This document shows positions 31,692 through 54,800 of a stretch of 64,000 bases of DNA, in pieces; position 1 is the first letter of the stretch; each line of letters starts with the position of its first letter. The notes below the pieces were generated by a model that did not search any database, had not been told where the DNA came from, and was given only the letters and a program-made list of their open reading frames with translations. Source of the stretch: Escherichia coli (GTDB taxonomy: Bacteria > Pseudomonadota > Gammaproteobacteria > Enterobacterales > Enterobacteriaceae); NCBI RefSeq assembly GCF_046105845.1, contig NZ_CP151004.1; one strand, given 5' to 3'. Both the position numbers and the translations under genes were made by a program.

Positions 31692-31697
31692 TGGCGA

Positions 31698-34426: not shown

Positions 34427-36577
34427 ATGGATACTAAAAAGATATTCAAGCACATACCCTGGGTGATTCTCGGAATCATCGGTGCATTCTGCCTCGCGGT
34501 AGTTGCATTACGTCGGGGGGAGCACGTCAGCGCCCTGTGGATCGTGGTCGCCTCTGTGTCGGTGTATCTGGTGGCGTATCGCTACTACAGTCTGTACATC
34601 GCCCAGAAGGTGATGAAACTCGACCCCACGCGCGCGACGCCTGCGGTTATTAACAACGACGGTCTGAACTATGTTCCGACTAACCGTTACGTGTTGTTTG
34701 GTCACCACTTCGCCGCTATCGCCGGTGCTGGTCCGCTGGTTGGTCCGGTTCTCGCCGCGCAGATGGGCTACCTGCCTGGCACGCTGTGGCTGCTGGCGGG
34801 GGTAGTGCTGGCCGGTGCGGTACAGGACTTTATGGTGCTGTTTATCTCCTCTCGCCGTAACGGCGCATCTCTCGGTGAGATGATCAAAGAAGAGATGGGA
34901 CCAGTACCGGGGACTATCGCGCTGTTTGGCTGTTTCTTAATCATGATCATCATCCTCGCCGTCCTGGCGCTGATTGTGGTTAAAGCCCTGGCCGAAAGTC
35001 CGTGGGGTGTCTTCACCGTTTGCTCAACCGTACCGATTGCGCTGTTTATGGGTATCTACATGCGCTTTATCCGTCCGGGGCGTGTGGGTGAAGTCTCTGT
35101 CATTGGTATCGTGCTGCTGGTTGCCTCTATCTACTTCGGTGGCGTGATTGCTCACGATCCGTACTGGGGTCCGGCACTGACCTTTAAAGACACCACCATT
35201 ACCTTCGCGCTGATTGGCTATGCGTTTGTTTCCGCACTGCTGCCGGTGTGGCTGATCCTCGCACCGCGCGACTATCTGGCAACCTTCCTGAAAATCGGCG
35301 TTATCGTCGGCCTGGCGCTGGGTATCGTGGTGCTGAACCCGGAACTGAAAATGCCTGCGATGACCCAGTACATTGACGGTACTGGCCCGCTGTGGAAAGG
35401 CGCTCTGTTCCCGTTCCTGTTCATCACCATCGCCTGTGGTGCGGTATCTGGCTTCCACGCGCTGATCTCTTCCGGTACGACGCCGAAACTGCTGGCTAAC
35501 GAAACCGACGCGCGTTTCATTGGCTACGGCGCAATGCTGATGGAGTCCTTCGTGGCGATTATGGCGCTGGTTGCTGCGTCCATCATCGAACCGGGTCTTT
35601 ACTTCGCGATGAACACCCCGCCTGCTGGCCTTGGCATCACCATGCCTAACCTGCATGAAATGGGTGGCGAGAACGCGCCGATCATCATGGCGCAGCTGAA
35701 AGACGTTACCGCACACGCGGCAGCGACCGTCAGCTCCTGGGGCTTCGTGATTTCGCCAGAGCAGATCCTGCAAACCGCGAAAGACATTGGTGAGCCTTCT
35801 GTCCTGAACCGTGCAGGTGGTGCGCCGACGCTGGCGGTAGGTATCGCTCACGTGTTCCACAAAGTGCTGCCGATGGCTGACATGGGCTTCTGGTATCACT
35901 TCGGTATTCTGTTCGAAGCCCTGTTCATCCTGACCGCGCTGGATGCGGGTACCCGTTCTGGCCGCTTTATGCTGCAAGACCTGCTGGGTAACTTCATCCC
36001 GTTCCTGAAAAAAACCGACTCTCTGGTTGCCGGTATCATCGGTACTGCGGGCTGTGTGGGTCTGTGGGGCTACCTGCTGTATCAGGGCGTGGTCGATCCG
36101 CTGGGCGGCGTTAAGAGTCTGTGGCCGCTGTTCGGTATTTCCAACCAGATGCTGGCAGCCGTAGCGCTGGTACTGGGCACCGTTGTGCTGATTAAGATGA
36201 AGCGCACCCAATACATCTGGGTAACTGTTGTTCCGGCTGTATGGCTGCTTATCTGCACCACCTGGGCGCTGGGTCTGAAACTGTTCAGCACCAACCCGCA
36301 GATGGAAGGCTTCTTCTACATGGCAAGCCAGTACAAAGAGAAGATTGCTAACGGTACTGACCTGACGGCGCAGCAGATTGCCAACATGAACCACATCGTT
36401 GTGAATAACTACACCAACGCAGGTCTGAGTATTCTGTTCCTGATCGTGGTGTACAGCATCATCTTCTACGGTTTCAAAACCTGGCTTGCGGTGCGTAACA
36501 GCGACAAACGTACTGACAAAGAAACACCGTACGTTCCAATCCCGGAAGGCGGCGTGAAGATCTCTTCGCACCACTAA
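34427..36577 (+). CDS. btsT: Pyruvate/H+ symporter BtsT (CstA family)
   Basis: 716 aa from internal ATG (MDTKKIFKHIPWVILG...). Confidence 0.95.
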   Translation: MDTKKIFKHIPWVILGIIGAFCLAVVALRRGEHVSALWIVVASVSVYLVAYRYYSLYIAQKVMKLDPTRATPAVINNDGLNYVPTNRYVLFGHHFAAIAGAGPLVGPVLAAQMGYLPGTLWLLAGVVLAGAVQDFMVLFISSRRNGASLGEMIKEEMGPVPGTIALFGCFLIMIIILAVLALIVVKALAESPWGVFTVCSTVPIALFMGIYMRFIRPGRVGEVSVIGIVLLVASIYFGGVIAHDPYWGPALTFKDTTITFALIGYAFVSALLPVWLILAPRDYLATFLKIGVIVGLALGIVVLNPELKMPAMTQYIDGTGPLWKGALFPFLFITIACGAVSGFHALISSGTTPKLLANETDARFIGYGAMLMESFVAIMALVAASIIEPGLYFAMNTPPAGLGITMPNLHEMGGENAPIIMAQLKDVTAHAAATVSSWGFVISPEQILQTAKDIGEPSVLNRAGGAPTLAVGIAHVFHKVLPMADMGFWYHFGILFEALFILTALDAGTRSGRFMLQDLLGNFIPFLKKTDSLVAGIIGTAGCVGLWGYLLYQGVVDPLGGVKSLWPLFGISNQMLAAVALVLGTVVLIKMKRTQYIWVTVVPAVWLLICTTWALGLKLFSTNPQMEGFFYMASQYKEKIANGTDLTAQQIANMNHIVVNNYTNAGLSILFLIVVYSIIFYGFKTWLAVRNSDKRTDKETPYVPIPEGGVKISSHH

Positions 36578-36585
36578 CCGTGTTT

Positions 36586-36613
36586 AGCCCCGCTTCGGCG
36601 GGGCTTTGTTCTT
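36586..36613 (+). terminator. Intrinsic terminator after btsT
   Basis: gccccgc-ttcg-gcggggc followed by T-rich tract. Confidence 0.6.
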
Positions 36614-36626
36614 ATCAGAGTGAACT

Positions 36627-36830
36627 ATGTTTGGTAACTTAGGACAGGCAAAAAAATATCTCGGCCAGGCGGCGAAGATGTTGATTGGCATTCCAGACTA
36701 CGACAACTACGTCGAGCATATGAAGACCAACCATCCCGACAAGCCGTACATGAGCTATGAAGAATTCTTCCGCGAACGCCAGAACGCGCGCTACGGCGGC
36801 GATGGTAAAGGCGGTATGCGCTGTTGTTAA
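36627..36830 (+). CDS. yjiX: Small protein YjiX (DUF466)
   Basis: 67 aa [33 protein letters not shown]... Confidence 0.9.
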
Positions 36831-36840
36831 TGGAGAGAGC

Positions 36841-37797
36841 ATGAACCCGATTGCAGTTACCCTACTCACCGGTTTTTTAGGCGCAGGAAAAACCACCCTG
36901 CTGCGCCATATTCTTAACGAACAGCACGGCTACAAGATTGCCGTAATTGAAAACGAATTTGGCGAAGTCTCTGTTGATGATCAACTGATTGGCGACCGCG
37001 CCACGCAGATCAAAACGCTGACCAACGGCTGCATCTGTTGTTCGCGCTCCAACGAGCTGGAGGACGCGCTACTCGACCTGCTGGACAATCTCGACAAGGG
37101 CAATATTCAGTTCGATCGTCTGGTTATTGAATGCACCGGCATGGCCGATCCCGGCCCGATTATTCAGACCTTTTTCTCCCATGAAGTTTTATGCCAGCGC
37201 TACCTGCTGGACGGGGTGATTGCACTGGTGGATGCGGTACATGCCGATGAGCAGATGAACCAGTTCACCATCGCCCAGTCACAGGTTGGCTACGCCGACC
37301 GCATTCTGCTGACCAAAACCGACGTCGCAGGTGAAGCAGAAAAACTGCGTGAACGCCTGGCGCGCATCAACGCCCGTGCACCGGTCTACACCGTTACCCA
37401 CGGCGATATCGACCTGGGCCTGCTATTCAACACCAACGGTTTTATGCTGGAAGAGAACGTGGTCAGCACCAAACCGCGTTTCCACTTTATCGCGGATAAA
37501 CAAAACGATATTTCGTCGATTGTGGTGGAACTGGATTACCCGGTAGATATCAGCGAAGTTTCTCGGGTGATGGAAAACCTGCTGCTGGAATCGGCAGATA
37601 AACTGCTGCGTTACAAAGGGATGCTGTGGATTGACGGCGAACCTAACCGCCTGCTGTTCCAGGGCGTTCAGCGCCTCTACAGCGCCGACTGGGACCGCCC
37701 GTGGGGCGATGAAAAACCGCATAGCACGATGGTGTTTATCGGGATTCAGCTGCCGGAGGAAGAGATTCGGGCAGCGTTTGCGGGGTTGAGGAAGTAA
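36841..37797 (+). CDS. yjiA: P-loop GTPase YjiA (COG0523 family)
   Basis: 318 aa from internal ATG; GFLGAGKTT Walker A; CxCC metal-binding motif (GCICCS). Confidence 0.9.
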   Translation: MNPIAVTLLTGFLGAGKTTLLRHILNEQHGYKIAVIENEFGEVSVDDQLIGDRATQIKTLTNGCICCSRSNELEDALLDLLDNLDKGNIQFDRLVIECTGMADPGPIIQTFFSHEVLCQRYLLDGVIALVDAVHADEQMNQFTIAQSQVGYADRILLTKTDVAGEAEKLRERLARINARAPVYTVTHGDIDLGLLFNTNGFMLEENVVSTKPRFHFIADKQNDISSIVVELDYPVDISEVSRVMENLLLESADKLLRYKGMLWIDGEPNRLLFQGVQRLYSADWDRPWGDEKPHSTMVFIGIQLPEEEIRAAFAGLRK

Positions 37798-37842
37798 GGG
37801 GTTATGGGCCGGATAAGGCGCAGCCGCATCTGGCCTGATATT

Positions 37843-38757
37843 TCACTCAAAATAGTCCATATCCAGTTTCGGCACCTTCAACAAACGTGAAGAAACCCCT
37901 ACTTCGTTTTCGATCATTAAGTGCACCAGGCGTTCCCCATCAACCAGCACCATACCCTCGACGGATTGGGCAAAGTCACGCGCCTGAGAAGTAAACCCAG
38001 AAGTGGTAATAAACACCCCACGTTTCGCTTTTTGCCCAGCCAGTGCGCCGTAAAATGCCTGTAATTCTGGCCTGCCTACAGTATTCTGCCAACGTTTTGC
38101 CTGAACATAAACTTTCTCCAGGCCAAGTTTATCAAGCGATATCACACCATCGATGCCACCATCTCCAGTACCGCCAACACGCTGCAAATCATCACGGTGG
38201 CCGCCATACCCCAGGCGATGCAAAACATCCAGAACAATGACTTCAAAGCGCGAAGGAGAAACCTGCAATAAGTTTTCCAGAACCTCATCAGCCACCGCAT
38301 CACGAAGCTCTTTTAGCGCCTGATCTAACCGATCGTCCGGGCTGCTCTTTGCAAGTTCTTCATGATCGGGAGAGTCGGCTTTCGGATCTAAATCGACGGC
38401 ATCCGGCCGTGACTTAAGTTTGACATTCACAAAAGCGAAGGCCAGATGGTTCGTCTCCTGCTCCGTCATTGGCTGGGGATGAGACGCAACCCAGTCAAAA
38501 CCCGCAGGAGTCAGGCACCATTTGCCACGCGACAAACTTTGCGACAACCCGGCACGTTTTAAACGGTCATGCGCCCAGCCTGCACGATTTTTATAAACAA
38601 GTTGTCCGCTGGTAATGACTTTCGCTCGCTGGCTGTCATCCAGTCCTAATGCATCCGCGGCAGCCTCATGAACATCACGCGCGGCTGCACCTTCCGGTTT
38701 TGTCGCCAGATAACGCAGAACAGGTTCAATAAATTTGTCATAGGTTGGAACCGTCAT
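37843..38757 (-). CDS. mrr: Type IV methyl-directed restriction endonuclease Mrr
   Basis: 304 aa MTVPTYDKFIEPVLRYLATKPEG...; PD-(D/E)xK region ...VISLDKLGLEKVYVQAKRW... Confidence 0.95.
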   Translation of the reverse strand: MTVPTYDKFIEPVLRYLATKPEGAAARDVHEAAADALGLDDSQRAKVITSGQLVYKNRAGWAHDRLKRAGLSQSLSRGKWCLTPAGFDWVASHPQPMTEQETNHLAFAFVNVKLKSRPDAVDLDPKADSPDHEELAKSSPDDRLDQALKELRDAVADEVLENLLQVSPSRFEVIVLDVLHRLGYGGHRDDLQRVGGTGDGGIDGVISLDKLGLEKVYVQAKRWQNTVGRPELQAFYGALAGQKAKRGVFITTSGFTSQARDFAQSVEGMVLVDGERLVHLMIENEVGVSSRLLKVPKLDMDYFE

Positions 38758-38944
38758 AGTACATCCTTGCAGAATCAGGTAGATGTTTTTCGGCTACTAT
38801 AACACTACAAAAATAGACGAACACGTTAGAAATGAGTCAGTTGCTGTGACTCCGGTCATTGCCCGGAAAGGTACAGAAAGCTAAGATAGGGCGTTATGGG
38901 CCTTAAATATTTGGACAGGCCCACACAGCAATGGATTAATAACA

Positions 38945-41900
38945 ATGATGAATAAATCCAACTTCGAATTCCTGAAGGGCGTCAACGACTTCACTTATGC
39001 CATCGCCTGTGCGGCGGAAAATAACTACCCGGATGATCCCAACACGACGCTGATTAAAATGCGTATGTTTGGCGAAGCCACAGCGAAACATCTTGGTATG
39101 TTACTCAACATCCCCCCTTGTGAGAATCAACACGATCTCCTGCGCGAACTCGGCAAAATCGCCTTCGTTGATGACAACATTCTCTCTGTATTCCACAAAT
39201 TACGCCGCATTGGTAACCAGGCGGTGCACGAATATCATAACGATCTCGACGATGCCCAGATGTGCCTGCGGCTAGGCTTCCGTCTGGCTGTCTGGTACTA
39301 CCGTCTGGTCACCAAAGATTATGACTTCCCGGTGCCGGTATTTGTGTTGCCGGAACGTGGCGAAAACCTCTATCACCAGGAAGTGCTGACGCTAAAACAA
39401 CAGCTTGAACAGCAGGCGCGAGAAAAAGCGCAGACTCAGGCAGAAGTCGAAGCGCAACAGCAGAAGCTGGTTGCCCTGAACGGCTATATCGCCATTCTGG
39501 AAGGCAAACAGCAGGAAACAGAAGCGCAAACCCAGGCTCGCCTTGCGGCGCTGGAAGCACAGCTTGCCGAGAAGAACGCGGAACTGGCAAAACAGACCGA
39601 ACAGGAACGTAAGGCTTACCACAAAGAAATTACCGATCAGGCCATCAAGCGCGCACTCAACCTTAGCGAAGAAGAGAGCCGCTTCCTGATTGACGCGCAA
39701 CTGCGTAAAGCAGGCTGGCAGGCCGATAGCAAAACCCTGCGCTTCTCCAAAGGCGCACGCCCGGAACCCGGCGTCAATAAAGCCATTGCCGAATGGCCGA
39801 CCGGGAAAGATGAAACGGGTAATCAGGGCTTTGCGGATTATGTGCTGTTTGTCGGCCTCAAGCCCATCGCGGTGGTAGAGGCGAAACGTAAAAATATCGA
39901 CGTTCCCGGCAAGCTCAATGAGTCGTATCGCTACAGCAAATGCTTCGATAATGGCTTCCTGCGGGAAACCTTGCTTGAGCATTACTCGCCGGATGAAGTG
40001 CATGAAGCGGTGCCGGAGTATGAAACCAGCTGGCAGGACACCAGCGGCCAACAACGGTTTAAAATCCCCTTCTGCTACTCGACCAACGGGCGCGAATACC
40101 GCGCAGCAATGAAGACTAAAAGTGGCATCTGGTATCGCGACGTGCGTGATACCCGCAATATGTCGAAAGCCTTACCCGAGTGGCATCGCCCGGAAGAGCT
40201 GCTGGAAATGCTCGGCAGCGAACCGCAAAAACAGAATCAGTGGTTTGCCGATAACCCTGGCATGAGCGAGCTGGGCCTGCGTTATTATCAGGAAGATGCT
40301 GTCCGCGCGGTGGAAAAGGCAATCGTCAAGGGTCAACAAGAGATCCTGCTGGCGATGGCGACCGGTACCGGTAAAACCCGTACCGCAATTGCCATGATGT
40401 TCCGCCTGATCCAGTCCCAGCGTTTTAAACGCATTCTCTTCCTTGTCGATCGCCGTTCTCTTGGCGAGCAGGCGCTGGGGGCGTTTGAAGATACGCGTAT
40501 TAACGGCGACACCTTCAACAGCATTTTCGACATTAAAGGTCTGACGGATAAATTCCCGGAAGACAGCACCAAAATTCACGTTGCCACCGTACAGTCGCTG
40601 GTGAAACGCACCCTGCAATCAGATGAACCGATGCCGGTGGCCCGTTACGACTGTATCGTCGTCGATGAAGCGCATCGCGGCTATATTCTCGATAAAGAGC
40701 AGACCGAAGGCGAGCTGCAATTCCGCAGCCAGCTGGATTACGTCTCTGCCTACCGTCGCATTCTCGATCACTTCGATGCGGTAAAAATCGCCCTCACCGC
40801 CACCCCGGCGCTGCATACGGTACAGATTTTCGGCGAGCCGGTTTACCGTTATACCTACCGTACCGCGGTTATCGACGGGTTTCTGATCGACCAGGATCCG
40901 CCTATTCAGATCATCACCCGCAACGCCCAGGAGGGGGTTTATCTCGCCAAAGGCGAGCAGGTTGAGCGCATCAGCCCACAGGGGGAAGTGATCAACGACA
41001 CCCTGGAAGACGATCAGGATTTTGAGGTCGCCGACTTTAACCGTGGCCTGGTGATCCCGGCGTTTAACCGCGCCGTCTGTAACGAACTCACCAACTACCT
41101 TGATCCGACCGGGTCACAAAAAACGCTGGTCTTCTGCGTCACCAATGCCCATGCCGATATGGTGGTGGAAGAGTTGCGTACCGCGTTCAAGAAAAAGTAT
41201 CCGCAACTGGAGCACGACGCGATCATCAAGATCACCGGTGATGCCGATAAAGACGCGCGCAAAGTGCAGACCATGATCACCCGCTTCAATAAAGAGCGGC
41301 TGCCCAATATCGTGGTAACCGTCGACCTGCTGACGACCGGCGTCGATATTCCGTCGATCTGTAACATCGTGTTCCTGCGTAAAGTACGCAGCCGTATTCT
41401 GTACGAGCAGATGAAAGGCCGCGCCACGCGCTTATGCCCGGACGTGAATAAAACCAGCTTTAAGATTTTCGACTGTGTCGATATCTACAGCACGCTGGAG
41501 AGCGTCGACACCATGCGTCCGGTGGTGGTGCGTCCGAAGGTGGAACTGCAAACGCTGGTCAATGAAATTACCGATTCAGAAACCTATAAAATCACCGAAG
41601 CGGACGGCCGTAGCTTTGCCGAGCACAGCCATGAACAACTGGTGGCGAAGCTCCAGCGCATCATCGGCCTGGCCACGTTTAACCGTGATCGCAGCGAAAC
41701 GATAGATAAACAGGTGCGTCGTCTGGATGAGCTATGCCAGGACGTGGCGGGGGTGAGCTTTAACGGCTTCGCCTCGCGCCTGCGGGAAAAAGGACCGCAC
41801 TGGAGCGCCGAAGTCTTTAACAAACTGCCTGGCTTTATCGCCCGCCTGGAAAAGCTGAAAACCGACATCAATAGCCTGAATGATGCGCCGATCTTCCTCG

Positions 41901-42457
41901 ATATTGACGATGAAGTGGTGAGCGTAAAATCGCTGTACGGTGATTACGACACGCCGCAGGATTTCCTCGAAGCCTTTGACTCGCTGGTGCAACGTTCCCC
42001 GAACGCGCAACCGGCATTGCAGGCGGTGATCAATCGCCCGCGCGATCTCACCCGTAAAGGGCTGGTTGAACTCCAGGAGTGGTTTGACCGCCAGCACTTT
42101 GAGGAATCTTCCCTGCGCAAAGCGTGGAAAGAGACGCGCAATGAAGATATCGCTGCCCGGCTGATTGGACATATTCGCCGCGCTGCGGTGGGCGATGCGC
42201 TGAAACCGTTTGAGGAACGTGTCGATCACGCGCTGACGCGCATTAAGGGCGAAAACGACTGGAGCAGCGAGCAATTAAGCTGGCTCGATCGTTTAGCGCA
42301 GGCGCTGAAAGAGAAAGTGGTGCTCGACGACGATGTCTTCAAAACCGGCAACTTCCACCGTCGCGGCGGGAAGGCGATGCTGCAAAGAACCTTTGACGAT
42401 AATCTCGACAACCTGCTTGATAAATTCAGCGATTATATCTGGGACGAGCTGGCCTGA
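38945..42457 (+). CDS. hsdR: Type I restriction enzyme R subunit HsdR (type IA, EcoKI-like)
   Basis: 1170 aa; SF2 motor motifs MATGTGKT and VVDEAHRG. Confidence 0.95.
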   Translation: MMNKSNFEFLKGVNDFTYAIACAAENNYPDDPNTTLIKMRMFGEATAKHLGMLLNIPPCENQHDLLRELGKIAFVDDNILSVFHKLRRIGNQAVHEYHNDLDDAQMCLRLGFRLAVWYYRLVTKDYDFPVPVFVLPERGENLYHQEVLTLKQQLEQQAREKAQTQAEVEAQQQKLVALNGYIAILEGKQQETEAQTQARLAALEAQLAEKNAELAKQTEQERKAYHKEITDQAIKRALNLSEEESRFLIDAQLRKAGWQADSKTLRFSKGARPEPGVNKAIAEWPTGKDETGNQGFADYVLFVGLKPIAVVEAKRKNIDVPGKLNESYRYSKCFDNGFLRETLLEHYSPDEVHEAVPEYETSWQDTSGQQRFKIPFCYSTNGREYRAAMKTKSGIWYRDVRDTRNMSKALPEWHRPEELLEMLGSEPQKQNQWFADNPGMSELGLRYYQEDAVRAVEKAIVKGQQEILLAMATGTGKTRTAIAMMFRLIQSQRFKRILFLVDRRSLGEQALGAFEDTRINGDTFNSIFDIKGLTDKFPEDSTKIHVATVQSLVKRTLQSDEPMPVARYDCIVVDEAHRGYILDKEQTEGELQFRSQLDYVSAYRRILDHFDAVKIALTATPALHTVQIFGEPVYRYTYRTAVIDGFLIDQDPPIQIITRNAQEGVYLAKGEQVERISPQGEVINDTLEDDQDFEVADFNRGLVIPAFNRAVCNELTNYLDPTGSQKTLVFCVTNAHADMVVEELRTAFKKKYPQLEHDAIIKITGDADKDARKVQTMITRFNKERLPNIVVTVDLLTTGVDIPSICNIVFLRKVRSRILYEQMKGRATRLCPDVNKTSFKIFDCVDIYSTLESVDTMRPVVVRPKVELQTLVNEITDSETYKITEADGRSFAEHSHEQLVAKLQRIIGLATFNRDRSETIDKQVRRLDELCQDVAGVSFNGFASRLREKGPHWSAEVFNKLPGFIARLEKLKTDINSLNDAPIFLDIDDEVVSVKSLYGDYDTPQDFLEAFDSLVQRSPNAQPALQAVINRPRDLTRKGLVELQEWFDRQHFEESSLRKAWKETRNEDIAARLIGHIRRAAVGDALKPFEERVDHALTRIKGENDWSSEQLSWLDRLAQALKEKVVLDDDVFKTGNFHRRGGKAMLQRTFDDNLDNLLDKFSDYIWDELA

Positions 42458-42658
42458 CACGTATACACTTCATCCTTCAGGCTACCTCTGCGTTGGCTGC
42501 GCTCGTTCACCCCGGTCACGTACTTCTGTACGCTCCCGGGGATTCACTCACTTGCCGCCTTGATGCAACCTGAATGATTTTGTGTATATTACCCTCGGCA
42601 ATTTCTTTTTCTGCGGCCCCAAACAATGCGGGCCGCTGCTTAATTTACGGAACTCACA

Positions 42659-44248
42659 ATGAACAATAACGATCTGGTCGCGAAGCTGTGGAAGCTGTGC
42701 GACAACCTGCGCGATGGCGGCGTTTCCTATCAAAACTACGTCAATGAACTCGCCTCGCTGCTGTTTTTGAAAATGTGTAAAGAGACCGGACAGGAAGCGG
42801 AGTACCTGCCGGTAGGCTACCGCTGGGATGATCTGAAATCCCGTATCGGTCAGGAGCAGTTGCAGTTCTACCGTAACCTGCTGGTACATCTGGGCGCCGA
42901 CAATCAAAAGCTGGTGCAGGCGGTGTTCCAGAACGTCAACACCACCATTACCCAGCCGAAACAGTTGACCGAGCTGGTCAGCAATATGGATTCACTGGAC
43001 TGGTACAACGGTGCGCACGGTAAGTCGCGCGATGACTTCGGCGATATGTACGAAGGGCTGCTGCAGAAGAACGCCAACGAAACCAAGTCTGGCGCGGGCC
43101 AGTACTTCACCCCGCGTCCGCTGATTAAAACCATTATTCATCTGCTGAAACCGCAGCCGCGTGAAGTGGTGCAGGATCCGGCAGCAGGTACGGCGGGCTT
43201 TTTGATTGAAGCCGACCGCTACGTTAAGTCGCAAACCAATGATCTGGACGACCTTGATGGCGACACGCAGGATTTCCAGATCCACCGCGCCTTTATCGGC
43301 CTCGAACTGGTGCCCGGCACCCGTCGTCTGGCGCTGATGAACTGCCTGCTACACGATATTGAAGGCAACCTCGACCACGGCGGCGCAATCCGTCTGGGCA
43401 ACACCCTGGGTAGCGACGGTGAAAATCTGCCGAAGGCGCATATTGTCGCCACTAACCCGCCGTTTGGCAGCGCCGCAGGCACCAACATTACCCGCACCTT
43501 TGTCCACCCGACCAGCAACAAACAGTTGTGCTTTATGCAGCATATTATCGAAACGCTGCATCCCGGCGGTCGTGCGGCGGTAGTGGTGCCAGATAACGTG
43601 CTGTTTGAAGGCGGCAAAGGCACCGACATCCGTCGTGACCTGATGGATAAGTGTCATCTGCATACCATCCTGCGTCTGCCGACCGGTATTTTTTACGCTC
43701 AGGGCGTGAAAACTAACGTGCTGTTCTTTACCAAAGGGACGGTGGCGAACCCGCATCAGGATAAGAACTGCACCGATGATGTGTGGGTGTACGACCTGCG
43801 TACCAATATGCCGAGCTTCGGCAAGCGCACGCCGTTTACCGACGAGCATTTGCAGCCGTTTGAGCGCGTGTATGGCGAAGATCCCCACGGTTTAAGCCCG
43901 CGCACTGAAGGTGAATGGAGTTTTAACGCCGAAGAGACGGAAGTTGCCGACAGCGAAGAGAACAAAAACACCGATCAGCATCTGGCTACCAGCCGCTGGC
44001 GCAAGTTCAGCCGCGAGTGGATCCGCACCGCGAAATCCGATTCGCTGGATATCTCCTGGCTGAAAGATAAAGACAGTATTGATGCCGACAACCTGCCGGA
44101 GCCGGATGTATTAGCGGCAGAAGCGATGGGTGAACTGGTGCAGGCGCTGGGCGAACTGGATGCGCTGATGCGTGAACTGGGGGCGAGCGATGAGGCCGAT
44201 TTGCAGCGTCAGTTGCTGGAAGAAGCATTTGGTGGGGTGAAGGAATGA
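42659..44248 (+). CDS. hsdM: Type I restriction-modification M subunit HsdM (N6-adenine methyltransferase)
   Basis: 529 aa; SAM motif DPAAGTAGF and catalytic NPPF. Confidence 0.95.
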   Translation: MNNNDLVAKLWKLCDNLRDGGVSYQNYVNELASLLFLKMCKETGQEAEYLPVGYRWDDLKSRIGQEQLQFYRNLLVHLGADNQKLVQAVFQNVNTTITQPKQLTELVSNMDSLDWYNGAHGKSRDDFGDMYEGLLQKNANETKSGAGQYFTPRPLIKTIIHLLKPQPREVVQDPAAGTAGFLIEADRYVKSQTNDLDDLDGDTQDFQIHRAFIGLELVPGTRRLALMNCLLHDIEGNLDHGGAIRLGNTLGSDGENLPKAHIVATNPPFGSAAGTNITRTFVHPTSNKQLCFMQHIIETLHPGGRAAVVVPDNVLFEGGKGTDIRRDLMDKCHLHTILRLPTGIFYAQGVKTNVLFFTKGTVANPHQDKNCTDDVWVYDLRTNMPSFGKRTPFTDEHLQPFERVYGEDPHGLSPRTEGEWSFNAEETEVADSEENKNTDQHLATSRWRKFSREWIRTAKSDSLDISWLKDKDSIDADNLPEPDVLAAEAMGELVQALGELDALMRELGASDEADLQRQLLEEAFGGVKE

Positions 44249-45615
44249 GTGCGGAGAAATTGCCGGAGGGGTGGGTTGAGTGTGAATTATCCGAACTCGG
44301 TAACATTGTTACAGGGAAAACTCCCAGTACCAAGGAGCCTTCCAATTTTGGAGGCAGCATTCCTTTCATTAAACCAGGCGATCTTGATCTCGGTGGCTAT
44401 ATCATGAATACCGCCGATACTCTGACGGAGAAAGGGTTATCTCTTGTCCCCACTCTTCCTGCCAATTCAGTCGTTGTGACGTGTATTGGAAATTTAGGAA
44501 AAGTTGGAATTACCGCTAAAAAATCAGCATCTAATCAACAAATAAATGCATTGATCCCGTCAGAAAAGCTAAATGTAAAATTTGTTTATTACCAAATTTT
44601 AACATTAAAACCATGGTTAGAGTCTCAATCAGCAGCTACTACAATTGCGATTGTGAACAAGAGCAAATTTTCTCAGGCACCATTTAAATTCCCGTCGCTT
44701 GCCGAACAAAAAATCATCACTGAAAAACTCGATACGCTGCTGGCGCAGGTAGACAGCACCAAAGCACGTCTTGAGCAAATCCCACAAATCCTGAATCGTT
44801 TTCGTCAGGCTATTCTAGCTAATGCTGTGGAAGGAAAATTGACCGACGAATGGCGAGCCGGAAAATGTTATATTACAGAAATCAAAAAAATATCTGATAT
44901 TATTCAGAATGCTCAAGTCGGATTAGTTCGTTCAGCTTCAGATCAAAGCGAAATATGCACTCAAAAAATGAGAACGCCTTATATAAAAATGAATAACATT
45001 CACAATGTTCTCGGAACAAATTTAGAAAAACTCGCTTATGTCAACTGTGATAGCTATGAACTGGAAAAATATAGATTAAAAAATGGAGATTGGCTCTTTA
45101 ATACACGAAATAGTTATGAGTTAGTTGGTAAATCCTGTGTCTGGAATGGATGTAGCAATGCTGTATATAATAATAATATATTAAGAGTTAGACTAAAAGA
45201 AAACTACAATTCTGTTTTTTTAGATTATTGGTTTCACTCGTTCTATGGAGTGAGCATGCTTAATAGTATTAAATCCGCAACAACAAATGTTGCTGCGATA
45301 TATCAGAAAGAACTCTTAAGTAAAAGTGTTCCATTCCCCCCCCTTCCCGAACAAGCCGAGATTGTTCGCCGCGTCGAACAACTCTTCGCCTACGCCGACA
45401 CCATAGAAAAACAGGTCAACAACGCCTTAGCCCGCGTTAACAACCTGACGCAATCCATCCTGGCAAAAGCGTTCCGTGGTGAACTCACCGCCCAGTGGCG
45501 GGCCGAAAACCCGGATTTAATCAGCGGAGAAAACAGCGCCGCCGCGTTGCTGGAAAAAATCAAAGCTGAACGCGCAGCCAGCGGGGGTAAAAAAGCCTCG
45601 CGTAAAAAATCCTGA
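44245..45615 (+). CDS. hsdS: Type I R-M specificity subunit HsdS, apparently non-EcoKI TRDs
   Basis: 456 aa; ATGA overlap with hsdM; conserved N-terminal, central (LAEQKIITEKLDTLLAQVDSTKAR) and C-terminal regions flank two low-GC variable TRDs. Confidence 0.9.
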   Translation: MSAEKLPEGWVECELSELGNIVTGKTPSTKEPSNFGGSIPFIKPGDLDLGGYIMNTADTLTEKGLSLVPTLPANSVVVTCIGNLGKVGITAKKSASNQQINALIPSEKLNVKFVYYQILTLKPWLESQSAATTIAIVNKSKFSQAPFKFPSLAEQKIITEKLDTLLAQVDSTKARLEQIPQILNRFRQAILANAVEGKLTDEWRAGKCYITEIKKISDIIQNAQVGLVRSASDQSEICTQKMRTPYIKMNNIHNVLGTNLEKLAYVNCDSYELEKYRLKNGDWLFNTRNSYELVGKSCVWNGCSNAVYNNNILRVRLKENYNSVFLDYWFHSFYGVSMLNSIKSATTNVAAIYQKELLSKSVPFPPLPEQAEIVRRVEQLFAYADTIEKQVNNALARVNNLTQSILAKAFRGELTAQWRAENPDLISGENSAAALLEKIKAERAASGGKKASRKKS

Positions 45616-45749
45616 TCATTATTTTCTGGCGCACCTTTCCGGTGCGCTTTTTATTATTTTACGCCAATCATAACTCACGCAAATATATTTAAATCATTCC
45701 AGAAATTGCCTATTTTATTCTATTTTTAGCTGGACTTTCCCTGTATTTA

Positions 45750-45765
45750 CTGATGATATATCCAG
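45750..45765. promoter_or_regulatory. Putative LexA (SOS) box upstream of symE
   Basis: CTGATGATATATCCAG (CTG-N10-CAG) about 80 bp upstream of symE ATG. Confidence 0.4.
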
Positions 45766-45842
45766 GTATTTAGCGCGGTGCGGATGTGCGCCAACACACC
45801 CGCACCGCTCATCACAATCACTATTCCAGGAGAATAGCAGTT

Positions 45843-46184
45843 ATGACTGACACGCATTTTATTGCACAACCGTTCGAAGCAGAAGTCTCCCCGGCAAATA
45901 ACCGTCAATTAACCGTGAGTTATGCGAGCCGCTACCCGGATTACAGCCGTATTCCCGCCATCACCCTGAAAGGTCAGTGGCTGGAAGCCGCCGGTTTTGC
46001 CACCGGCACGGCGGTAGATGTCAAAGTGATGGAAGGCTGTATTGTCCTCACCGCCCAACCCCCCGCCGCTGAAGAGAGCGAACTGATGCAGTCGCTGCGC
46101 CAGGTGTGCAAACTGTCGGCGCGTAAACAAAAGCAGGTGCAGGCGTTTATTGGAGTGATTGCCGGTAAACAGAAAGTCGCGTAA
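45843..46184 (+). CDS. symE: SOS-induced toxin-like protein SymE (AbrB/SpoVT fold)
   Basis: 113 aa [52 protein letters not shown]... Confidence 0.9.
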
Positions 46185-46345
46185 CAGCGTTTACTCCCGG
46201 TTAACCACCGGGAGCCTTCCACTGACTCAATAGAAACTTTCCCCCTCAGTAAATATTTACCTGCCTGATTGTGCAGTAAAAATCTATTGTTTCAGTACGT
46301 TGCGAAAGCGATAATAGAGGCTTAGCAATGAGGAAGGCACATCTT

Positions 46346-47725
46346 ATGGAATCAATTCAAGCCTGGATTGAAAAATTTATTGAGCAAGCACAGCAACAAA
46401 GTTCGCAATCCACTAAAGATTATCCAACGTCTTACCGTAACCTGCGAGTAAAAGTGAGTTTCGGTTATGGCAATTTTACATCTATTCCCTGGTTTGCATT
46501 TCTTGGAGAAGGTCAGGAAGTTTCTAACGGTATATATCCCGTTATTCTCTATTATAAAGATTTTGATGAGTTGGTTTTGGCTTATGGTATAAGTGACACG
46601 AATAAACCACATGCACAATGGCACTTTTCTTCTGACATACCTAAAACAATCGCAGAGTATTTCCAGGCAACTTCAGGTGTATATCCTAAAAAATACGGAC
46701 AGTCCTATTACGCCTGTTCCCAAAAAGTCTCACAGGGTCTTGATTATACCCGGCTTGCCTCCATGCTGGACAACATAATCAACGACTATAAATTAATATT
46801 TAATTCTGGCAAGAGTGTTATTCCACCTATGTCAAAAACTGAATCATACTGTCTGGAAGATGCGTTAAATGATTTGTTTATCCCTGAAACCACAATAGAG
46901 ACGATACTCAAACGATTAACCATCAAAAAAAATATTATCCTCCAGGGGCCGCCCGGCGTTGGAAAAACCTTTGTTGCACGCCGTCTGGCTTACTTGCTGA
47001 CAGGAGAAAAGGCTCCGCAACGCGTCAATATGGTTCAGTTCCATCAATCTTATAGCTATGAGGATTTTATACAGGGCTATCGTCCGAATGGTGTCGGCTT
47101 CCGACGTAAAGACGGTATATTTTACAATTTTTGTCAGCAAGCTAAAGAGCAGCCAGAGAAAAAGTATGTTTTTATTATAGATGAAATTAATCGTGCCAAT
47201 CTCAGTAAAGTATTTGGCGAAGTGATGATGTTAATGGAACATGATAAACGAGGTGAAAACTGGTCTGTTCCCTTAACCTACTCCGAAAACGATGAAGAAC
47301 GATTCTATGTCCCGGAGAATGTTTATATTATCGGTTTAATGAATACTGCCGATCGCTCTCTGGCCGTTGTTGATTATGCCCTGCGCAGACGATTTTCTTT
47401 CATAGATATTGAGCCAGGTTTTGATACACCACAGTTCCGGAATTTTTTACTGAATAAAAAAGCAGAACCTTCATTTGTTGAGTCTTTATGCCAAAAAATG
47501 AACGAGTTAAACCAGGAAATCAGCAAAGAGGCCACTATCCTTGGGAAAGGATTCCGCATTGGGCATAGTTACTTCTGCTGTGGGTTGGAAGATGGCACCT
47601 CTCCGGATACGCAATGGCTTAATGAAATTGTGATGACGGATATCGCCCCTTTACTCGAAGAATATTTCTTTGATGACCCCTATAAACAACAGAAATGGAC
47701 CAACAAATTATTAGGGGACTCATAG
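46346..47725 (+). CDS. mcrB: 5-methylcytosine-specific restriction enzyme McrB (GTPase subunit)
   Basis: 459 aa from internal ATG with AGGAAGG RBS; AAA+ Walker A GPPGVGKT. Confidence 0.95.
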   Translation: MESIQAWIEKFIEQAQQQSSQSTKDYPTSYRNLRVKVSFGYGNFTSIPWFAFLGEGQEVSNGIYPVILYYKDFDELVLAYGISDTNKPHAQWHFSSDIPKTIAEYFQATSGVYPKKYGQSYYACSQKVSQGLDYTRLASMLDNIINDYKLIFNSGKSVIPPMSKTESYCLEDALNDLFIPETTIETILKRLTIKKNIILQGPPGVGKTFVARRLAYLLTGEKAPQRVNMVQFHQSYSYEDFIQGYRPNGVGFRRKDGIFYNFCQQAKEQPEKKYVFIIDEINRANLSKVFGEVMMLMEHDKRGENWSVPLTYSENDEERFYVPENVYIIGLMNTADRSLAVVDYALRRRFSFIDIEPGFDTPQFRNFLLNKKAEPSFVESLCQKMNELNQEISKEATILGKGFRIGHSYFCCGLEDGTSPDTQWLNEIVMTDIAPLLEEYFFDDPYKQQKWTNKLLGDS

Positions 47726-48771
47726 TGGAACAGCCCGTGATACCTGTCCGTAATATCTATTACATGCTTACCTATGCATGGGGTTATTTACAGGACATTA
47801 AGCAGGCCGACCTTGAAGCCATACCCGGTAACAATCTTCTTGATATCCTGGGGTATGTATTAAATAAAGGGGTTTTACAGCTTTCACGCCGAGGGCTTGA
47901 GCTTGATTACAATCCTAATACCGAGATCATTCCTGGCATCAAAGGGCGAATAGAGTTTGCTAAAACAATACGCGGCTTCCATCTTAATCATGGGAAAACC
48001 GTCAGTACTTTTGATATGCTTAATGAAGACACGCTGGCTAACCGAATTATAAAAAGCACATTAGCCATATTAATTAAGCATGAAAAGTTAAATTCAACTA
48101 TCAGAGATGAAGCTCGTTCACTTTATAGAAAATTACCGGGCATTAGCACTCTTCATTTAACTCCGCAGCATTTCAGCTATCTGAACGGCGGAAAAAATAC
48201 GCGTTATTATAAATTCGTTATCAGTGTCTGCAAATTCATCGTCAATAATTCTATTCCAGGTCAAAACAAAGGACACTACCGTTTCTATGATTTTGAAAGA
48301 AACGAAAAAGAGATGTCATTACTTTATCAAAATTTTCTTTTTGAATTTTGCCGTCGTGAATTACCATCTGTAAATACAACTCGCCCACATTTAAAATGGG
48401 ATGCATCAAGCATATCGGATCAATCACTTAGCTTGTTACCTCGAATGGAAACTGACATCACCATTAACTCATCAGGGAAAATACTTATCGTTGATGCCAA
48501 ATACTATAAAAGCATTTTTTCACGACGAATGGGTACAGAAAAGTTTCATTCTCAAAATCTATATCAACTGATGAGTTACTTATGGTCGTTAAAGCCTGAA
48601 AATGGCGAAAAAACAGGGGGGTTATTAATATACCCACACGTAGACACCTCAGTGAAACATCGTTATAAAATTAATGGCTTCGATATTGGCTTGTGTACCG
48701 TCAATTTAGGTCAGGAATGGCCGTGTATACATCAAGAATTACTCGACATTTTCGGTGAATATCTCAAATAA
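47725..48771 (+). CDS. mcrC: McrBC endonuclease subunit McrC
   Basis: 348 aa from GTG overlapping mcrB stop by 1 nt (TAGTG); PD-(D/E)xK region ...DITINSSGKILIVDAKYYKS. Confidence 0.9.
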   Translation: MEQPVIPVRNIYYMLTYAWGYLQDIKQADLEAIPGNNLLDILGYVLNKGVLQLSRRGLELDYNPNTEIIPGIKGRIEFAKTIRGFHLNHGKTVSTFDMLNEDTLANRIIKSTLAILIKHEKLNSTIRDEARSLYRKLPGISTLHLTPQHFSYLNGGKNTRYYKFVISVCKFIVNNSIPGQNKGHYRFYDFERNEKEMSLLYQNFLFEFCRRELPSVNTTRPHLKWDASSISDQSLSLLPRMETDITINSSGKILIVDAKYYKSIFSRRMGTEKFHSQNLYQLMSYLWSLKPENGEKTGGLLIYPHVDTSVKHRYKINGFDIGLCTVNLGQEWPCIHQELLDIFGEYLK

Positions 48772-48827: not shown

Positions 48828-51800
48828 TCAGGAGGCGATCACCTCCACCAGCACATCCGTTGCCCAACTCTCTTCGCTGTTGGCGACATTCCCTTCCTTG
48901 CAGGCCTGAGCCATTTTGACTAACTGGAAAGAAACGTCATCGCGGAAATCAAAGTAATGCCATTGCGATGCAAAGTTGATGCGCCAGTAGCCCATCCCCT
49001 GATCGAAGCGGATCTTCAATACCTGACCATCATCAAAAGTCACCGTCAGTTTACGATGGTGAGGGATATCGCGCGGCGAGTCGAACACCGTCAGTTCTAC
49101 CGGCCTGCCCAGCGCAGCAGCAAACCACTGATCAGCGAAATCCTGAAAATCCGCTATGCTCATCCAGTCATGGAAAGGCCGGTTACCGGGGCGATCTTTA
49201 TCTTTAAATAGCGTATCCAGCGTCACTTCAGCGCCATCGGTCAGCTTTGTTTTTAGCGGTCTCAAAATTGATCCCAACAACGCCAGCGCAACCGGGTTTT
49301 GCAGATAGCGATCGGTATAGTGAACGCCGGTAATTCGCGTGTTATTCATCAGTGACTGCGCTTCTTCATGGTCGTTAAACAGCACGTCCCAGAAGCGTTG
49401 CCCAAACTGCGACAGTGGTCCATTCAACTGTTTGTGGATCTGAATGTCTTTGACCCGCTCGACAGCGTTGGCGGCTTTAGCCGGCAGAATAAATTCGTTC
49501 AGCTCTACCGTTTTATAGCCGAGACTACGTACCACCAGTTCGTCATTCAGGTGCCACTCCGGCCCCGGAATCGTTGCCTGCTGGCTACGAGAGGCCAGCG
49601 TCATCACGCGATCGGCAAAGGTGACCTGAGCAACGATCGGTAATTTCAAATCCTGTTCAACATGGCATAGCCGCACACCCAGCGCAGTAAATTGCGATAG
49701 TTCGTGCAACAGGTCCGGGTCATCCACTCCCGCAGGAATAACAAGATCGACCTCGACGTTGTCTTTTAGCCGATAGTTCTGAACCGCCGCGCGGAACTGA
49801 CGTGCGTATAAATCCCACTCATTGGGCGCGCCGGTCATCCACAGGGTGAGCTTTTCAGCGCCTTCGTTAATCGCCCGGCGAATCGTATCGCCAATGGCGC
49901 CAGGGCAGTAGCGGGCATCCGGCAGCGAGAATGTCTCTTCATCCGGTAAACCGATGTAATACGTGAAGTCATCGCCAAGCCAGGCCAGCGCCGCTTTGCG
50001 ATCCAGCAAATCGTGATCGTGGCGAGTCTGGGAATCAAGCAGGCATTCACTACATGCAGTCTCACAATGGCGGCAGCCTAACTGTTTCACCATTCCCTGC
50101 AATATAGCTTCAATGTGTACCGGTGCGCTGGAGGCAAAACCTGCACCACCGCTGATCACATCATAAAGCTGTACGGCTAATACCGATTGCCCATCCTCCA
50201 GTCTGACCGGACGTACAGAATAGCCGAGTTCTGCGGCGGAGATACCCAGAACGCCCGCCAGCGCCTGACGCAGAGCAACCGCCAGAGTCATGGCAACAAT
50301 CCGCCCCTCCTCTGTGTTATCTGGCAGATACTCGCCGTTTTGCGGTTTGCGCAGAACCATTTCAAAGACATCGGTGCGCGCCAGTGCGCCCAGGGTGACG
50401 TTCTTCATGAGTGCCGTCGAACCGGGGCAAATCAGACGATGATTCTGGCTATCGCGGTCCGCTTTACCCGGACGCGGTGGATAGTGAGCTTCCATGCTTT
50501 TCGGCGCATCATTTTCATTCAGCATCGACTCAGCACGGCCACAGCTCAGACACAATGCATAACCGTGTCCACCTTCCCCCAAACTTTGCTGGAAAACATG
50601 CCCATCAGCCCCAGAAGCCATATAACCCATTAGCGGGTTAGGCAACGGTACGGGCTCTGCTTTAACAAAGACCCACGCGGGGACAACCGGGACGAATTTC
50701 ATGGTTTCAATATTGTTCGTTACCGGAGCGTGTGCATCGGTGACAAACCCGGCAGGCTGCAGCACCTGACGGCGATTATCCATGATTATTTTTTCGCCGC
50801 AGGCGCTATTGGAGCAAAAGAGCATCCCGGAACTGCTCATCCCCTCTTCATAGCCAATGGTCCCGCATTTGTGACAGCGCCAGGCGCAATCCAGACGCTG
50901 GGCTTCATTGGTATCAGCATTAATGTTGTGCCAGTGCAGTGAGACACCGGCAGAGCGGAAGACACGGCCATCAAGAATGATCTCTGCTCCCGGTGCATAT
51001 TCACGAATGGCAACACCGAGGTTACGGGAAGGTAATCCTTTATAACGGGAGACGTTATCTTCACGGTCCTTTTTATCACGACTTTTTTGCGATTTTTCGC
51101 GGATATAATCTTCCATTGTGAAGTTATCAAACGTCACTACATCTGTCGGGAAACCGTATCCCGGCAAGAAGGTTCTGGCAGCTAGATCGCGCAGCAGATA
51201 CTCGCCACAGTGCCGTTTCTTCTCCAGCTCTATGCGCTTACGATAAGGCGTTTGCGGCTGCGACTCACGCTCCTGTGTCACGAGATCGCGATAAACGGAG
51301 AGCCACCGCTGCTGCAGGAAGGTGATCGCGTTGATTGTTTTATCCCGCAGATATTCGGCTCTTGCACCATGCAACGCCGTACCTTTCACCAGCCGTTCCA
51401 GCGCCGTGTCGATATCAAGAACAGGGCGTTCCAGCCAGACTTTGAAGCGTTCGCATTTTGACTGCCCGTCATCTTCACCGAAAAACCAGAGGCTATCGAG
51501 GCTGGTTTTCTCTTTATCGGTTTCGCCAATAACGTTACATAAAAAGTCGGACAGTAATAATGCATTGACGTGACGTTGCACCAGTCGGGCGGAGTTCATC
51601 GCGACCATGGGTGCCGGGATCATGGTTTCAAATGGCCAGAGCGGGTTGGCAAAAACCTGCTGGTCGTGTGGGTTACCTTTACATAGGGTGTAAGAGATCG
51701 CACGTGATTCTTTACTACGCCCGGCTCGCCCGGCGCGCTGTAAATAGTTGGCCGGATGTGGCGGTACGTTGTTCATTACCACCGCAGTAATGCCCCCGAT

Positions 51801-54800
51801 ATCAACCCCCATTTCCATGGTGGTGGAACAGTTGAGAACATTTAGTTGCCCATTCTTGAACATCTTTTCATAGCTTTGCAGACGTTCTGACGACTGCTGG
51901 GCAGAGTGCTCGGCAGTGCGATAGTAGAAACCGCCTTCCACGACACGATCGTTGATGTCTGTCCAGACGTTTTCCGACCGCAATTGTGCGATCAGCGGAT
52001 CATTGCTGACCCAGTCGCGTGCTTTTGCCAGACCCTCTGCGTAGTCTTCCTGTGAACGATCCAGCTTCCAGATTTCCGGCATGGTGACTTTCTGCGCGAC
52101 AAAAGTGTCATATTGCGCCTGGGTAAGATGCTCGAACGAAATATGGGTAGGCAGATAAGGGGTTAAGCCTTTAAAAGCCGTATCCAGGATTTTATTGGTT
52201 ACCGGGCAAATCCAGGCATCCGTGATTAATGAAAAAGTCATATGCTCTTTCGGTAAATAAAAACGGTTGCCATCGGGTTTCAGTACTGCAAGCGGTCCGG
52301 TAAGTTGGGCCCATGCTTCTTTCAGCCATGTATTGATAATATCAATAGTCGCCGTATTGACGGTTTTGAATCCAGCCCCCAGCATCAGTAACTTCGCTAA
52401 ACGATGGGATACGTTGCCATTACGAATTTGAGGCCAGCGTCTGTTCTGATTATCTTCAGGATCTTTTGATTCCGGGTTACGGACGAATTTTGATGAAAAA
52501 CGGCTACCGATCCAGTTTTTCAGCTCATCATCCAGCTGTGTGAAGTTGCTCTCACGAACGTAATGATCCAGCGTAACTTTGAGAAAATCGCGCCAGTCAT
52601 CCAGCGTTAATCCTTTTTCCTGCCAGTGCAGAGGGATCTTATGTATTTTCTCCAGCCCCAGGTAACCAACCTGAACCAGCCCTTGTGTTTCCAGGCTGTT
52701 AGTCCGTTTAGGGCGACGCATGAATTCCCGGAATAACAACATTTCCGAAAGCTTTAGAGGCCCGCCGTTTTCATTAAACACTTCAGGCTTAAGATAATGG
52801 TTATATTGCAGAACCGGGCCACGGATATCGGCTCTCTCTTTAAGCTCGTTAACCATTTCTGTCCAGGTTCGGGATACCAGAGTAATTGCAGCTTTTCCAC
52901 CGATTGCAGACTGGTAAGCCTGTTCAAGCTGCTCGGCCTGCGCTTCTGATAATTTCGCTTGATCCGGCAATCCCCAGCTTCGATATTCTTCTGCCTGCTC
53001 ACGGGCTTGCTTTACCCTGGTCGCTAATTTTTCCAGATCGGCATTAGCGTTCGGCGCCGTGGGCGTTTGCGTTCGTTGATGCCAGCTCAGAATTTCGACT
53101 ACGCTTCCGCGTAAGCGACTACGTTCTGCTTCTTGCTGCATACGCACCGCCATCCGGGCTGTCCCTTGTCGACTATCCGTAAAGGTAATGAGTCGACGTC
53201 CTCGCCCTGGCAACGAATCTGGTCCGACGCCCTCTTTGCCTTCATCACTGGCAAAGTCCTGACAATACTCAAGAACGGTAGGCACGATGTTAGTAACGTA
53301 AAATGGCCCACCTAATAATGCACGCCGAAAGGGTTGTTTTCCGCTCATGCCTCGGTAGCCACAGCCGCTGGCGCTACAAACCTGTTCAATATCATTAATA
53401 ATCAGCGGAATGCTGTCATTATTAATAACGCCAATACGGCGCGTCTGACGGTCGAGGCGTTGTAGGGTATAGCCTGTCTCGCTGGTCTCTCCTGCGGCAA
53501 TAATCAACGGAGGCTGGAAACTGTTCTCTTTTTCGACTTTTTCCTCTGTAGTGTCATGTTCAACAGGTACTTCATCCTGCAAGGAGAACTCATCGCCACC
53601 TTTATTTTCCCATTGGACAAGTTTGCCCTTTTTGTCCTGCGCCAGAAGATGAGGCTCATTACAATCATTACAGAACGCCACTTCGTATACAGGGCTTCCA
53701 CAGTCACAATTTTGTCGCTGGTTCACATACACATAGCCAAAGGGCCAGCCTTTTTCGAGCGGTGTACCGTGCTTTAATCTGCAATCTTTATCAACACAAG
53801 CCCATATTCCCTGGGTATTACGCTGGAAGATATGCGCCCTGACTTTAAGAAATGCGGGATCCTTTGCATTAGGTTGAGTCCCTGAACAGACATCGATCCA
53901 ACGCAGTACTTCCTGCTGGCTGTAATGCTGTTTTGTCAGCACGTTTAACCGCTCTGTTATCTCATCCAGCTTCATCGGATTGGGCTGTTTGACCAACATC
54001 TCACGTATGTAACGCGCTTCGGGGGAATGCGTAAGCGCATAAAAGCGATCAGGACTTATACCTTTAATTTTATTATCATTTTTATCTCTTAGATCCAGAT
54101 CGGGTATTTGCTCTATTTCGTCTAACGGAAGAGAAACGTTTTTGGATGGTTCCAGTTCAGGAATCACCCGACTTCCGTCCAGAACATCGATGCGCTCCTT
54201 CGGGATACCGGATAATTCAGAGAGAAATTTTTTCAGCTGCTTTTCGACGTCGCTGCCGGCAATGGTCGCAGAGGTCGCTACAAAGCGCACATCATCTGGC
54301 GTCACGCCAAACGCTGTCATCACACGACGCAGCTGGAGCGCCAGTTCAGCGGCCTGCGACCCGACATAGGTATGCGCTTCATCCAGTACAATCCAGCGTA
54401 GTGATTTTTGTGCTTTGGATTGCTGGATAATCGGGGCGTCGACCTGGCGAACCATCATATATTCCAGCATCGTGCCGTTGGTCACCAGAATCGGGGCAGG
54501 TTCTTCACGCATTTTTTCGCGCGAGAGCACCTCATTCGGCCTTTTTGCCTGTTCGCTTTTTACCGAAGCGTGTAGGTTTTCGGTGTTACCGTTGTAAAGG
54601 CAGTAGCGGATCCCGGTACCAAAACCACGCGTCCAGGCATCCAGACGCTCGCGCTGTGAATTAATCAGGGCGTTCAATGGATAGAGAAAAAGGGCTCGGA
54701 CACCGACCAACGGATTGTTGCCATTTTCATGCAGTTCCCGGTAAAGATCTTCCAGCACCGGTACCATAAAACATTCCGTTTTACCTGAACCCGTACCACT

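Follow-up and report, generated by a model that had tools for sequence, protein, structure and literature searches.

In type I restriction-modification systems, one HsdS and two HsdM subunits form the methyltransferase, and the addition of two HsdR subunits makes the restriction enzyme (PMC3874165; PMC12707154). Each target-recognition domain (TRD) of HsdS reads one half-site, while antiparallel conserved helices set the distance between the methylated adenines (PMC3874165; PMC12707154). The interval between the methylated bases tracks these helices (PMC12707154), and all type IA enzymes characterised have one of 8 bp (PMC3874165, Table 1). A type I family is defined by genetic complementation, in which its members can interchange subunits (PMC12707154). 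Within type IA, new specificities arise by recombination within the central conserved region and have the same 8-bp adenine interval, and the review that describes this also compares the specificities of StySKI's N-terminal TRD and EcoR124I's C-terminal TRD (PMC3874165). The immigration control region, where these genes lie, is a hot spot of recombination and polymorphism (PMC12707154). The reference for the present study is EcoKI of Escherichia coli K-12, whose HsdS (b4348; PDB 2Y7C and 2Y7H) specifies the target AAC(N6)GTGC.

Here we analyse the hsdS gene in a stretch of 64,000 nucleotides of E. coli DNA, referred to below as the window. The gene is intact, it places two TRDs unlike those of EcoKI in a nearly unchanged EcoKI framework, and it has been exchanged as a cassette between E. 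coli lineages. Judging from its sequence, what it encodes is very probably a functional allelic form of the specificity subunit of type IA, the EcoKI family. The features on which this reading is based are collected in Table 1.

Table 1. Features of the hsd locus, numbered from the first nucleotide of the window.
Feature	Position	Strand	Remarks
mrr	37843-38757	-	neighbour of hsdR
hsdR, type IA restriction/translocase subunit, 1170 aa	38945-42457	+	NCBIfam NF008521, 1743 bits
hsdM, type IA m6A methyltransferase subunit, 529 aa	42659-44248	+	NPPF at 266
Minimal 100%-identical block (hsdM 3' end, hsdS, intergenic)	43527-45809		flanks of the same loci 1.2-2.4% diverged from the window
hsdS, type I specificity subunit, 456 aa, intact	44245-45615	+	open reading frame; two Pfam Methylase_S matches; PADLOC; fold model
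N-terminal conserved region, aa 1-11	44245-44277	+	10/11 residues as in EcoKI
TRD1, aa 12-150, predicted reader of the 5' half-site	44278-44694	+	GC 0.396; 139 aa
Central conserved region, aa 151-204, with helix 152-195 of the coiled-coil spacer	44695-44856	+	44/54 residues as in EcoKI, equal length
TRD2, aa 205-365, predicted reader of the 3' half-site	44857-45339	+	GC 0.315
A7 homopolymer, start of TRD2	44884-44890	+	A6 variant gives a truncated 226-aa HsdS in some public assemblies
C8 homopolymer, junction of TRD2 and C-terminal region	45336-45343	+	frameshift variants in public assemblies
C-terminal conserved region, aa 366-456, plus stop; helix 367-410	45340-45615	+	89/91 residues as in EcoKI
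Terminator-like hairpin after hsdS (GCGCACC-tttcc-GGTGCGC, then T run)	45629-45659	+	read from sequence
symE	from about 45844		neighbour downstream of hsdS
mcrB and mcrC	46328-48771		neighbours beyond symE

The order of the locus, mrr-hsdR-hsdM-hsdS-symE-mcrBC, is that of the K-12 immigration control region, and the stop codon of hsdM and the start codon of hsdS overlap in an ATGA. The hsdS reading frame runs without interruption through 456 codons, with zero internal stops, and its product matches Pfam Methylase_S (PF01420; E 8e-39) in two stretches and the PADLOC Specificity_I profile with 505 bits. Both partner subunits are those of EcoKI with few changes: HsdR differs at 17 of its 1170 residues (1153/1170 the same, 98.5%) and HsdM at 14 of 529 (515/529, 97.4%). 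No stop codon interrupts either gene, and the diagnostic motifs are intact (GTGKT, the Walker A motif, at residue 474 and DEAH at 574 of HsdR; NPPF in HsdM). A preliminary description of this DNA had proposed an EcoKI-like HsdR/HsdM scaffold, and had given EcoKI HsdS 464 residues against the 456 found here; both statements agree with our results, as the K-12 gene indeed encodes 464. It had likewise recognized the N-terminal, central and C-terminal regions of a type IA HsdS, and residue counts against the K-12 protein confirm that all three are present.

The boundaries of these regions are sharp at the DNA level. By blastn, identity to K-12 is about 97% in the flanks, breaks exactly at 44277 and resumes at 45349; between these two points the central region is the sole match, at 85.5%. 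The central region has a GC content of 0.469 and the C-terminal region one of 0.557, while hsdR and hsdM lie at 0.54-0.56. Besides the three type IA regions, the locus has IA-type HsdR and HsdM partners between mrr and symE/mcrBC, and HsdS has two tandem Methylase_S TRDs, each with a long helix. By all features testable in silico, the sequence assigns this HsdS to type IA, the EcoKI family. Interchange with EcoKI or EcoBI subunits is also expected, and likely to hold, because the interface regions are near-identical.

The protein was modelled with AlphaFold2 on a 56-sequence alignment (mean pLDDT 94.6, pTM 0.83). The model has two globular domains and two 44-residue helices, at 152-195 and 367-410, and all its Foldseek matches are type I S subunits; among solved structures, the best matches are the S subunits of EcoKI, Methanocaldococcus jannaschii (1YF2), PacII and T. 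tengcongensis. As modelled, this is a complete S subunit, with TRDs and helices, two of each, in the canonical arrangement.

The TRDs themselves tell a different story from the framework. Neither has a significant BLASTP match to EcoKI HsdS (E 0.53 and 0.11). For TRD2, phmmer picks up no more than a remote relation to the C-terminal TRD of EcoKI (about 107 residues, E 2.9e-5); between TRD1 and the N-terminal TRD of EcoKI, no similarity is detectable. The NCBIfam equivalog model for EcoKI HsdS, NF007278, scores 469 bits on the window protein, below its cut-off of 662, so that both marks of an EcoKI-isospecific HsdS, homologous TRDs and a pass on this model, are missing. The alignment thus upholds the view of the preliminary description that two TRDs differing from those of EcoKI occupy these stretches. 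The same description had also singled out their AT-richness. The low GC values stand; as a mark of this allele they do not, because the TRDs of EcoKI are equally AT-rich (0.353 and 0.340): AT-richness is a general trait of type IA TRDs and is uninformative on the window allele.

Relatives of the two domains are distant. In a word-indexed protein search, the best relatives of TRD1 are 60-66% identical and unnamed. The best non-self relative of TRD2 among 1.8 billion representatives is 56% identical and belongs to a type IA-like partial HsdS from a Pseudomonadales metagenome-assembled genome (MAG); an exhaustive HMMER search with TRD2 returned no close characterised relative. Against the PDB there are remote matches alone: for TRD1 the TRDs of 1YF2 and the C-terminal TRD of EcoR124I, and for TRD2 the C-terminal TRD of EcoKI and S.BsaXI. 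No enzyme of characterised specificity sharing TRD1 or TRD2 was found in the word-indexed searches with both TRDs, the exhaustive HMMER search with TRD2, or the PDB. Prediction of the recognition sequence by homology was given up, because relatives are remote or lack characterisation, the nearest relative of TRD2, at 56%, being itself uncharacterised. One apparent close match to TRD2, protein P0179, was discarded, because its 265 bits add up from two TRD2-like domains, each about 47% identical. A plasmid source for TRD2 was also rejected, as the best tblastn identity in plasmids is just 36%.

The allele is rare among complete genomes. By blastn, of 5426 complete E. coli genomes, 5 contain TRD1 DNA and 3 contain TRD2 DNA, even in a sensitive search. 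The exact 456-aa protein is nevertheless already public (for example, EED0144326.1), where it is correctly named as a specificity subunit; it is found on 97 contigs in a cluster look-up and in 217 blocks of an assembly index, an occurrence that argues for conservation of the intact HsdS over decay. Our estimate of rarity is based on blastn in the 5426 genomes, the exact-sequence look-up and the exhaustive search. The word-indexed protein searches returned nearly exclusively short or partial proteins, and their rarity signal was distrusted because they missed known full-length carriers, such as WP_085458454.1.

Comparison of the carriers makes TRD reassortment directly visible. Strains Res13-Lact-PER13-34 and HKUOPY1 have TRD1 DNA that is 100% and 96.9% identical, respectively, to that of the window, but the HsdS proteins of these strains carry TRD2s unrelated to that of the window, so across E. 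coli genomes TRD1 is paired with three different TRD2s. Similarity to both carriers ends at 44808 or 44856, within the central conserved region or where it ends, and restarts at 45321 or 45349, in or beside a conserved region. The preliminary description had suspected TRD shuffling from the protein alone; because TRD1 recurs in two hsdS alleles with other TRD2s, recombination in the conserved regions is now seen directly.

A second level of exchange concerns the gene as a whole. Ten loci compared with the window have an identical or almost identical hsdS, whereas their flanks are 0.3-2.4% diverged from it. The identical block spans from 43527 to a point between 45809 and 46404 (2.3-2.9 kb) and has zero mismatches where flank divergence would predict 27-70. 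It resides on at least four hsdR-hsdM haplotypes, up to 2% apart. A mismatch-free block amid diverged flanks on several haplotypes means that the allele has moved: the hsdS cassette has been exchanged between E. coli lineages by homologous recombination, which fits the known hot-spot character of the region.

From these data we propose how the protein would work and how it arose. The N-terminal, central and C-terminal regions would form the coiled-coil frame and the HsdM contacts, nearly unchanged from EcoKI, and the two globular TRDs would each read half of a bipartite, asymmetric target. Since both TRDs are unrelated to those of EcoKI, this target is predicted to be other than AAC(N6)GTGC; the change of specificity put forward in the preliminary description is thereby supported as far as sequence comparison can support it. 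The methylated adenines would keep the family-typical 8-bp spacing, because helix length is unchanged from EcoKI, and the enzyme, with its partners, would presumably be active. As to origin, homologous recombination in the conserved regions probably reassorted the TRDs, followed by exchange of the cassette between E. coli lineages. Whether the full-length specificity is new to REBASE we consider evenly balanced.

Two homopolymers within the gene are sites of frameshift in public assemblies. At the A7 run, an A6 variant yields the 226-aa protein P0166, which comprises TRD1 and the central helix; 14 contigs were seen to carry it, the complete ETEC1738 genome among them. A6 copies were fetched at four places: three share one flank haplotype over hsdR-hsdM, and the fourth is a short contig. 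Because the comparable copies share one hsdRM haplotype, A6 seems to reflect a clonal mutation with loss of function, or an error of sequencing, more than phase variation. At the C8 run, ETEC1738 has C7, P0165 is frameshifted at the same point, and frameshifted hsdS occurs in 2 contigs; PGAP marks the ETEC1738 gene as frameshifted. In the cluster look-up, the 97 contigs with the intact protein compare with 9 and 2 for the frameshifted forms. The C8 run is the only run of eight or more C in protein-coding sequence of the window. Three further C8 runs, at 18678, 18793 and 18914 (115-121 bp apart), lie in a non-coding tRNA-Leu stretch, where strain Ec1119 has three tandem tRNA-Leu genes between rsmC and yjjZ; they are probably conserved tRNA-Leu sequence.

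Phase variation was considered for this locus and rejected: it has neither invertons nor long repeats, and its homopolymer frameshifts seem to be clonal. A search of 44000-46300 gave no significant inverted or tandem repeats, and neither a second hsdS nor a recombinase was found at the locus; of the features of phase-variable type I systems (an hsdS inverton or a repeat-controlled hsdS), just the A7 and C8 runs come into question. It is conceivable that the 226-aa half-HsdS dimerises and confers a palindromic, TRD1-only specificity, which would amount to homopolymer-driven switching in an E. coli type IA system. Precedents for such palindromic specificity of half-subunits are EcoR124I HsdS(delta50), truncated EcoDXXI and NgoAV. 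The type IA half-subunit produced by A6 is without the C-terminal conserved region, and half-subunits of this type are not known to have activity; we regard the idea as highly improbable.

In NZ_CM149870.1, a byte-identical hsdS (positions 9001-10371 of locus L001, corresponding to window 44245-45615) was annotated by PGAP as two overlapping 'incomplete' pseudogene features. Because both pieces are in the same frame and overlap, and their evidence comes from two different best-hit proteins, the split appears to be an artefact that arises when a mosaic protein is annotated from evidence, with no lesion in the gene. It exposes a weakness of the pipeline, which cuts a mosaic but intact hsdS into two "partial pseudogenes" and so hides it from RefSeq protein sets.

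Some of these observations could nonetheless be taken to mean that hsdS is a decaying pseudogene, or an inactive mosaic whose incompatible halves do not assemble with HsdM. The 'incomplete' features in NZ_CM149870.1, the frameshift flag in ETEC1738 and the frameshifted copies (14 contigs at A7, 2 at C8) would suit this explanation; they also speak against a functional allele in so far as the intact gene has not been kept in every lineage. We nevertheless find decay unlikely: the reading frame of the window is continuous, the PGAP pieces are merely overlapping parts of that frame, the fold model is complete and confident, the regions of contact with partner subunits are near-identical to those of EcoKI, the intact protein is far commoner than its frameshifted forms, and the A6 copies that could be compared sit on one flank haplotype, pointing to a clonal mutation.

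If the protein is functional, it might still have kept the specificity of EcoKI, its TRDs reading AAC and GCAC as before. Dissimilar TRDs occasionally do read the same or similar half-sites, and StySKI's N-terminal TRD and EcoR124I's C-terminal TRD have related ones; the remote phmmer relation of TRD2 to its EcoKI counterpart points the same way. That match, however, is weak and unseen by BLASTP, the EcoKI equivalog falls well short of its cut-off, TRD1 resembles nothing in the N-terminal TRD of EcoKI, and both TRDs would have had to converge at once, which makes an EcoKI isoschizomer extremely unlikely. It is also very unlikely that the TRDs were recently imported from a low-GC foreign donor instead of being reassorted from the enterobacterial type IA pool. 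The gap between the GC of the TRDs (0.32-0.40) and that of hsdR and hsdM invites this idea, as do the closest TRD2 relatives outside E. coli, which are in other taxa such as the Pseudomonadales MAG. Yet low GC is a family-wide trait, as EcoKI illustrates; multi-billion-protein searches yielded no donor above 56% for TRD2 or 66% for TRD1; the conserved regions of the 56% relative are themselves type IA-like; and the TRD1 of HKUOPY1 has already diverged by 3% inside E. coli, implying long residence. A functional type IA allele with reassorted TRDs is the reading that we retain.

The surroundings of the locus were recorded as well. Core genes by the locus (lgoT, tsr, btsT and yjiA; window 30000-44244) are at most 97.1% identical to any of the 5426 complete RefSeq E. 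coli genomes, and hsdR-hsdM at most 97.9%; the closest flank found, at 99.7%, is on a scaffold (L006) assembled from a metagenome in ENA. The low identity of the core genes had suggested a source other than E. coli; this was discarded because several E. coli chromosomes match window 1-9000 at 100% and draft relatives come closer, at 99.7%. Window 30000-44244 is a haplotype that diverges locally, around the immigration control region. From position 1 to about 15400, the window contains part of a lambdoid prophage integrated by yjjG, with a Q-like antiterminator, DUF968, KilA-N, RusA, a LexA-family repressor, yfdPQR-like genes and an integrase (14144-15367, minus strand); over 9 kb, its identity to prophages of E. 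coli Ec1119 and others is 100%.

Downstream of hsdS, the longest reading frame of mcrB (46328-47725) has 465 codons for amino acids, against a 459-aa annotation in K-12 and most loci, a matter of start-codon choice. In one carrier of a frameshifted hsdS (L015, GCA_021649405.1), mcrC is also split, into pieces of 222 aa and 108 aa (region 13480-14525). Directly downstream of mcrBC, the minus strand encodes full-length matches to PADLOC DruE3 (48828-55172, 2114 aa, 2697 bits) and DruH3 (55185-58523, 1112 aa, 1829 bits), which make up an intact pair of Druantia type III. In K-12 their counterparts are yjiV, a pseudogene, and yjiT (Pfam YjiV_N and YjiT_N), of which the window has the intact forms. 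The defence island of the window hence comprises Mrr, the type IA restriction-modification system, SymE, McrBC and Druantia III.

In practical terms, a strain carrying this locus is predicted to restrict DNA made in K-12 or B hosts and to methylate another motif, which matters for transformation efficiency, phage host range and the reading of methylomes. The locus is also a clean illustration from nature of how type I specificity evolves when TRDs are reassorted and hsdS cassettes pass between lineages. That hsdS alleles at the immigration control region are diverse has stood in textbooks since the 1980s-1990s, so current understanding is unchanged: the allele is rare and intact, represents ordinary textbook-type variation, and may be novel at most in its recognition sequence.

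Among the closest known systems is EcoKI, with which the window HsdS shares locus, operon layout, conserved regions and helix lengths, and whose HsdR and HsdM are 97-98% identical to its partners; the window protein differs in its TRDs, unrelated at the BLASTP level, in the length of TRD1 (139 aa, against about 150 aa in EcoKI) and in total length. Closest in TRD2 are two uncharacterised proteins with IA-like central and C-terminal regions, the partial HsdS of the Pseudomonadales MAG (P0002) and P0179 (457 aa), which has a TRD2-type domain in both positions; both are too divergent for a transfer of specificity. With EcoBI, EcoDI, StyLTIII, StySPI and the recombinants StySQ and StySJ, the likeness is one of principle, namely a constant IA frame with exchangeable TRDs (PMC3874165). 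Also close are the HsdS proteins of Res13-Lact-PER13-34 (WP_085458454.1, 496 aa) and HKUOPY1 (WP_089623856.1, 451 aa), which have the same TRD1, the same IA frame and the same locus; because their TRD2s are unrelated to that of the window, they are predicted to share just one half-site with it.
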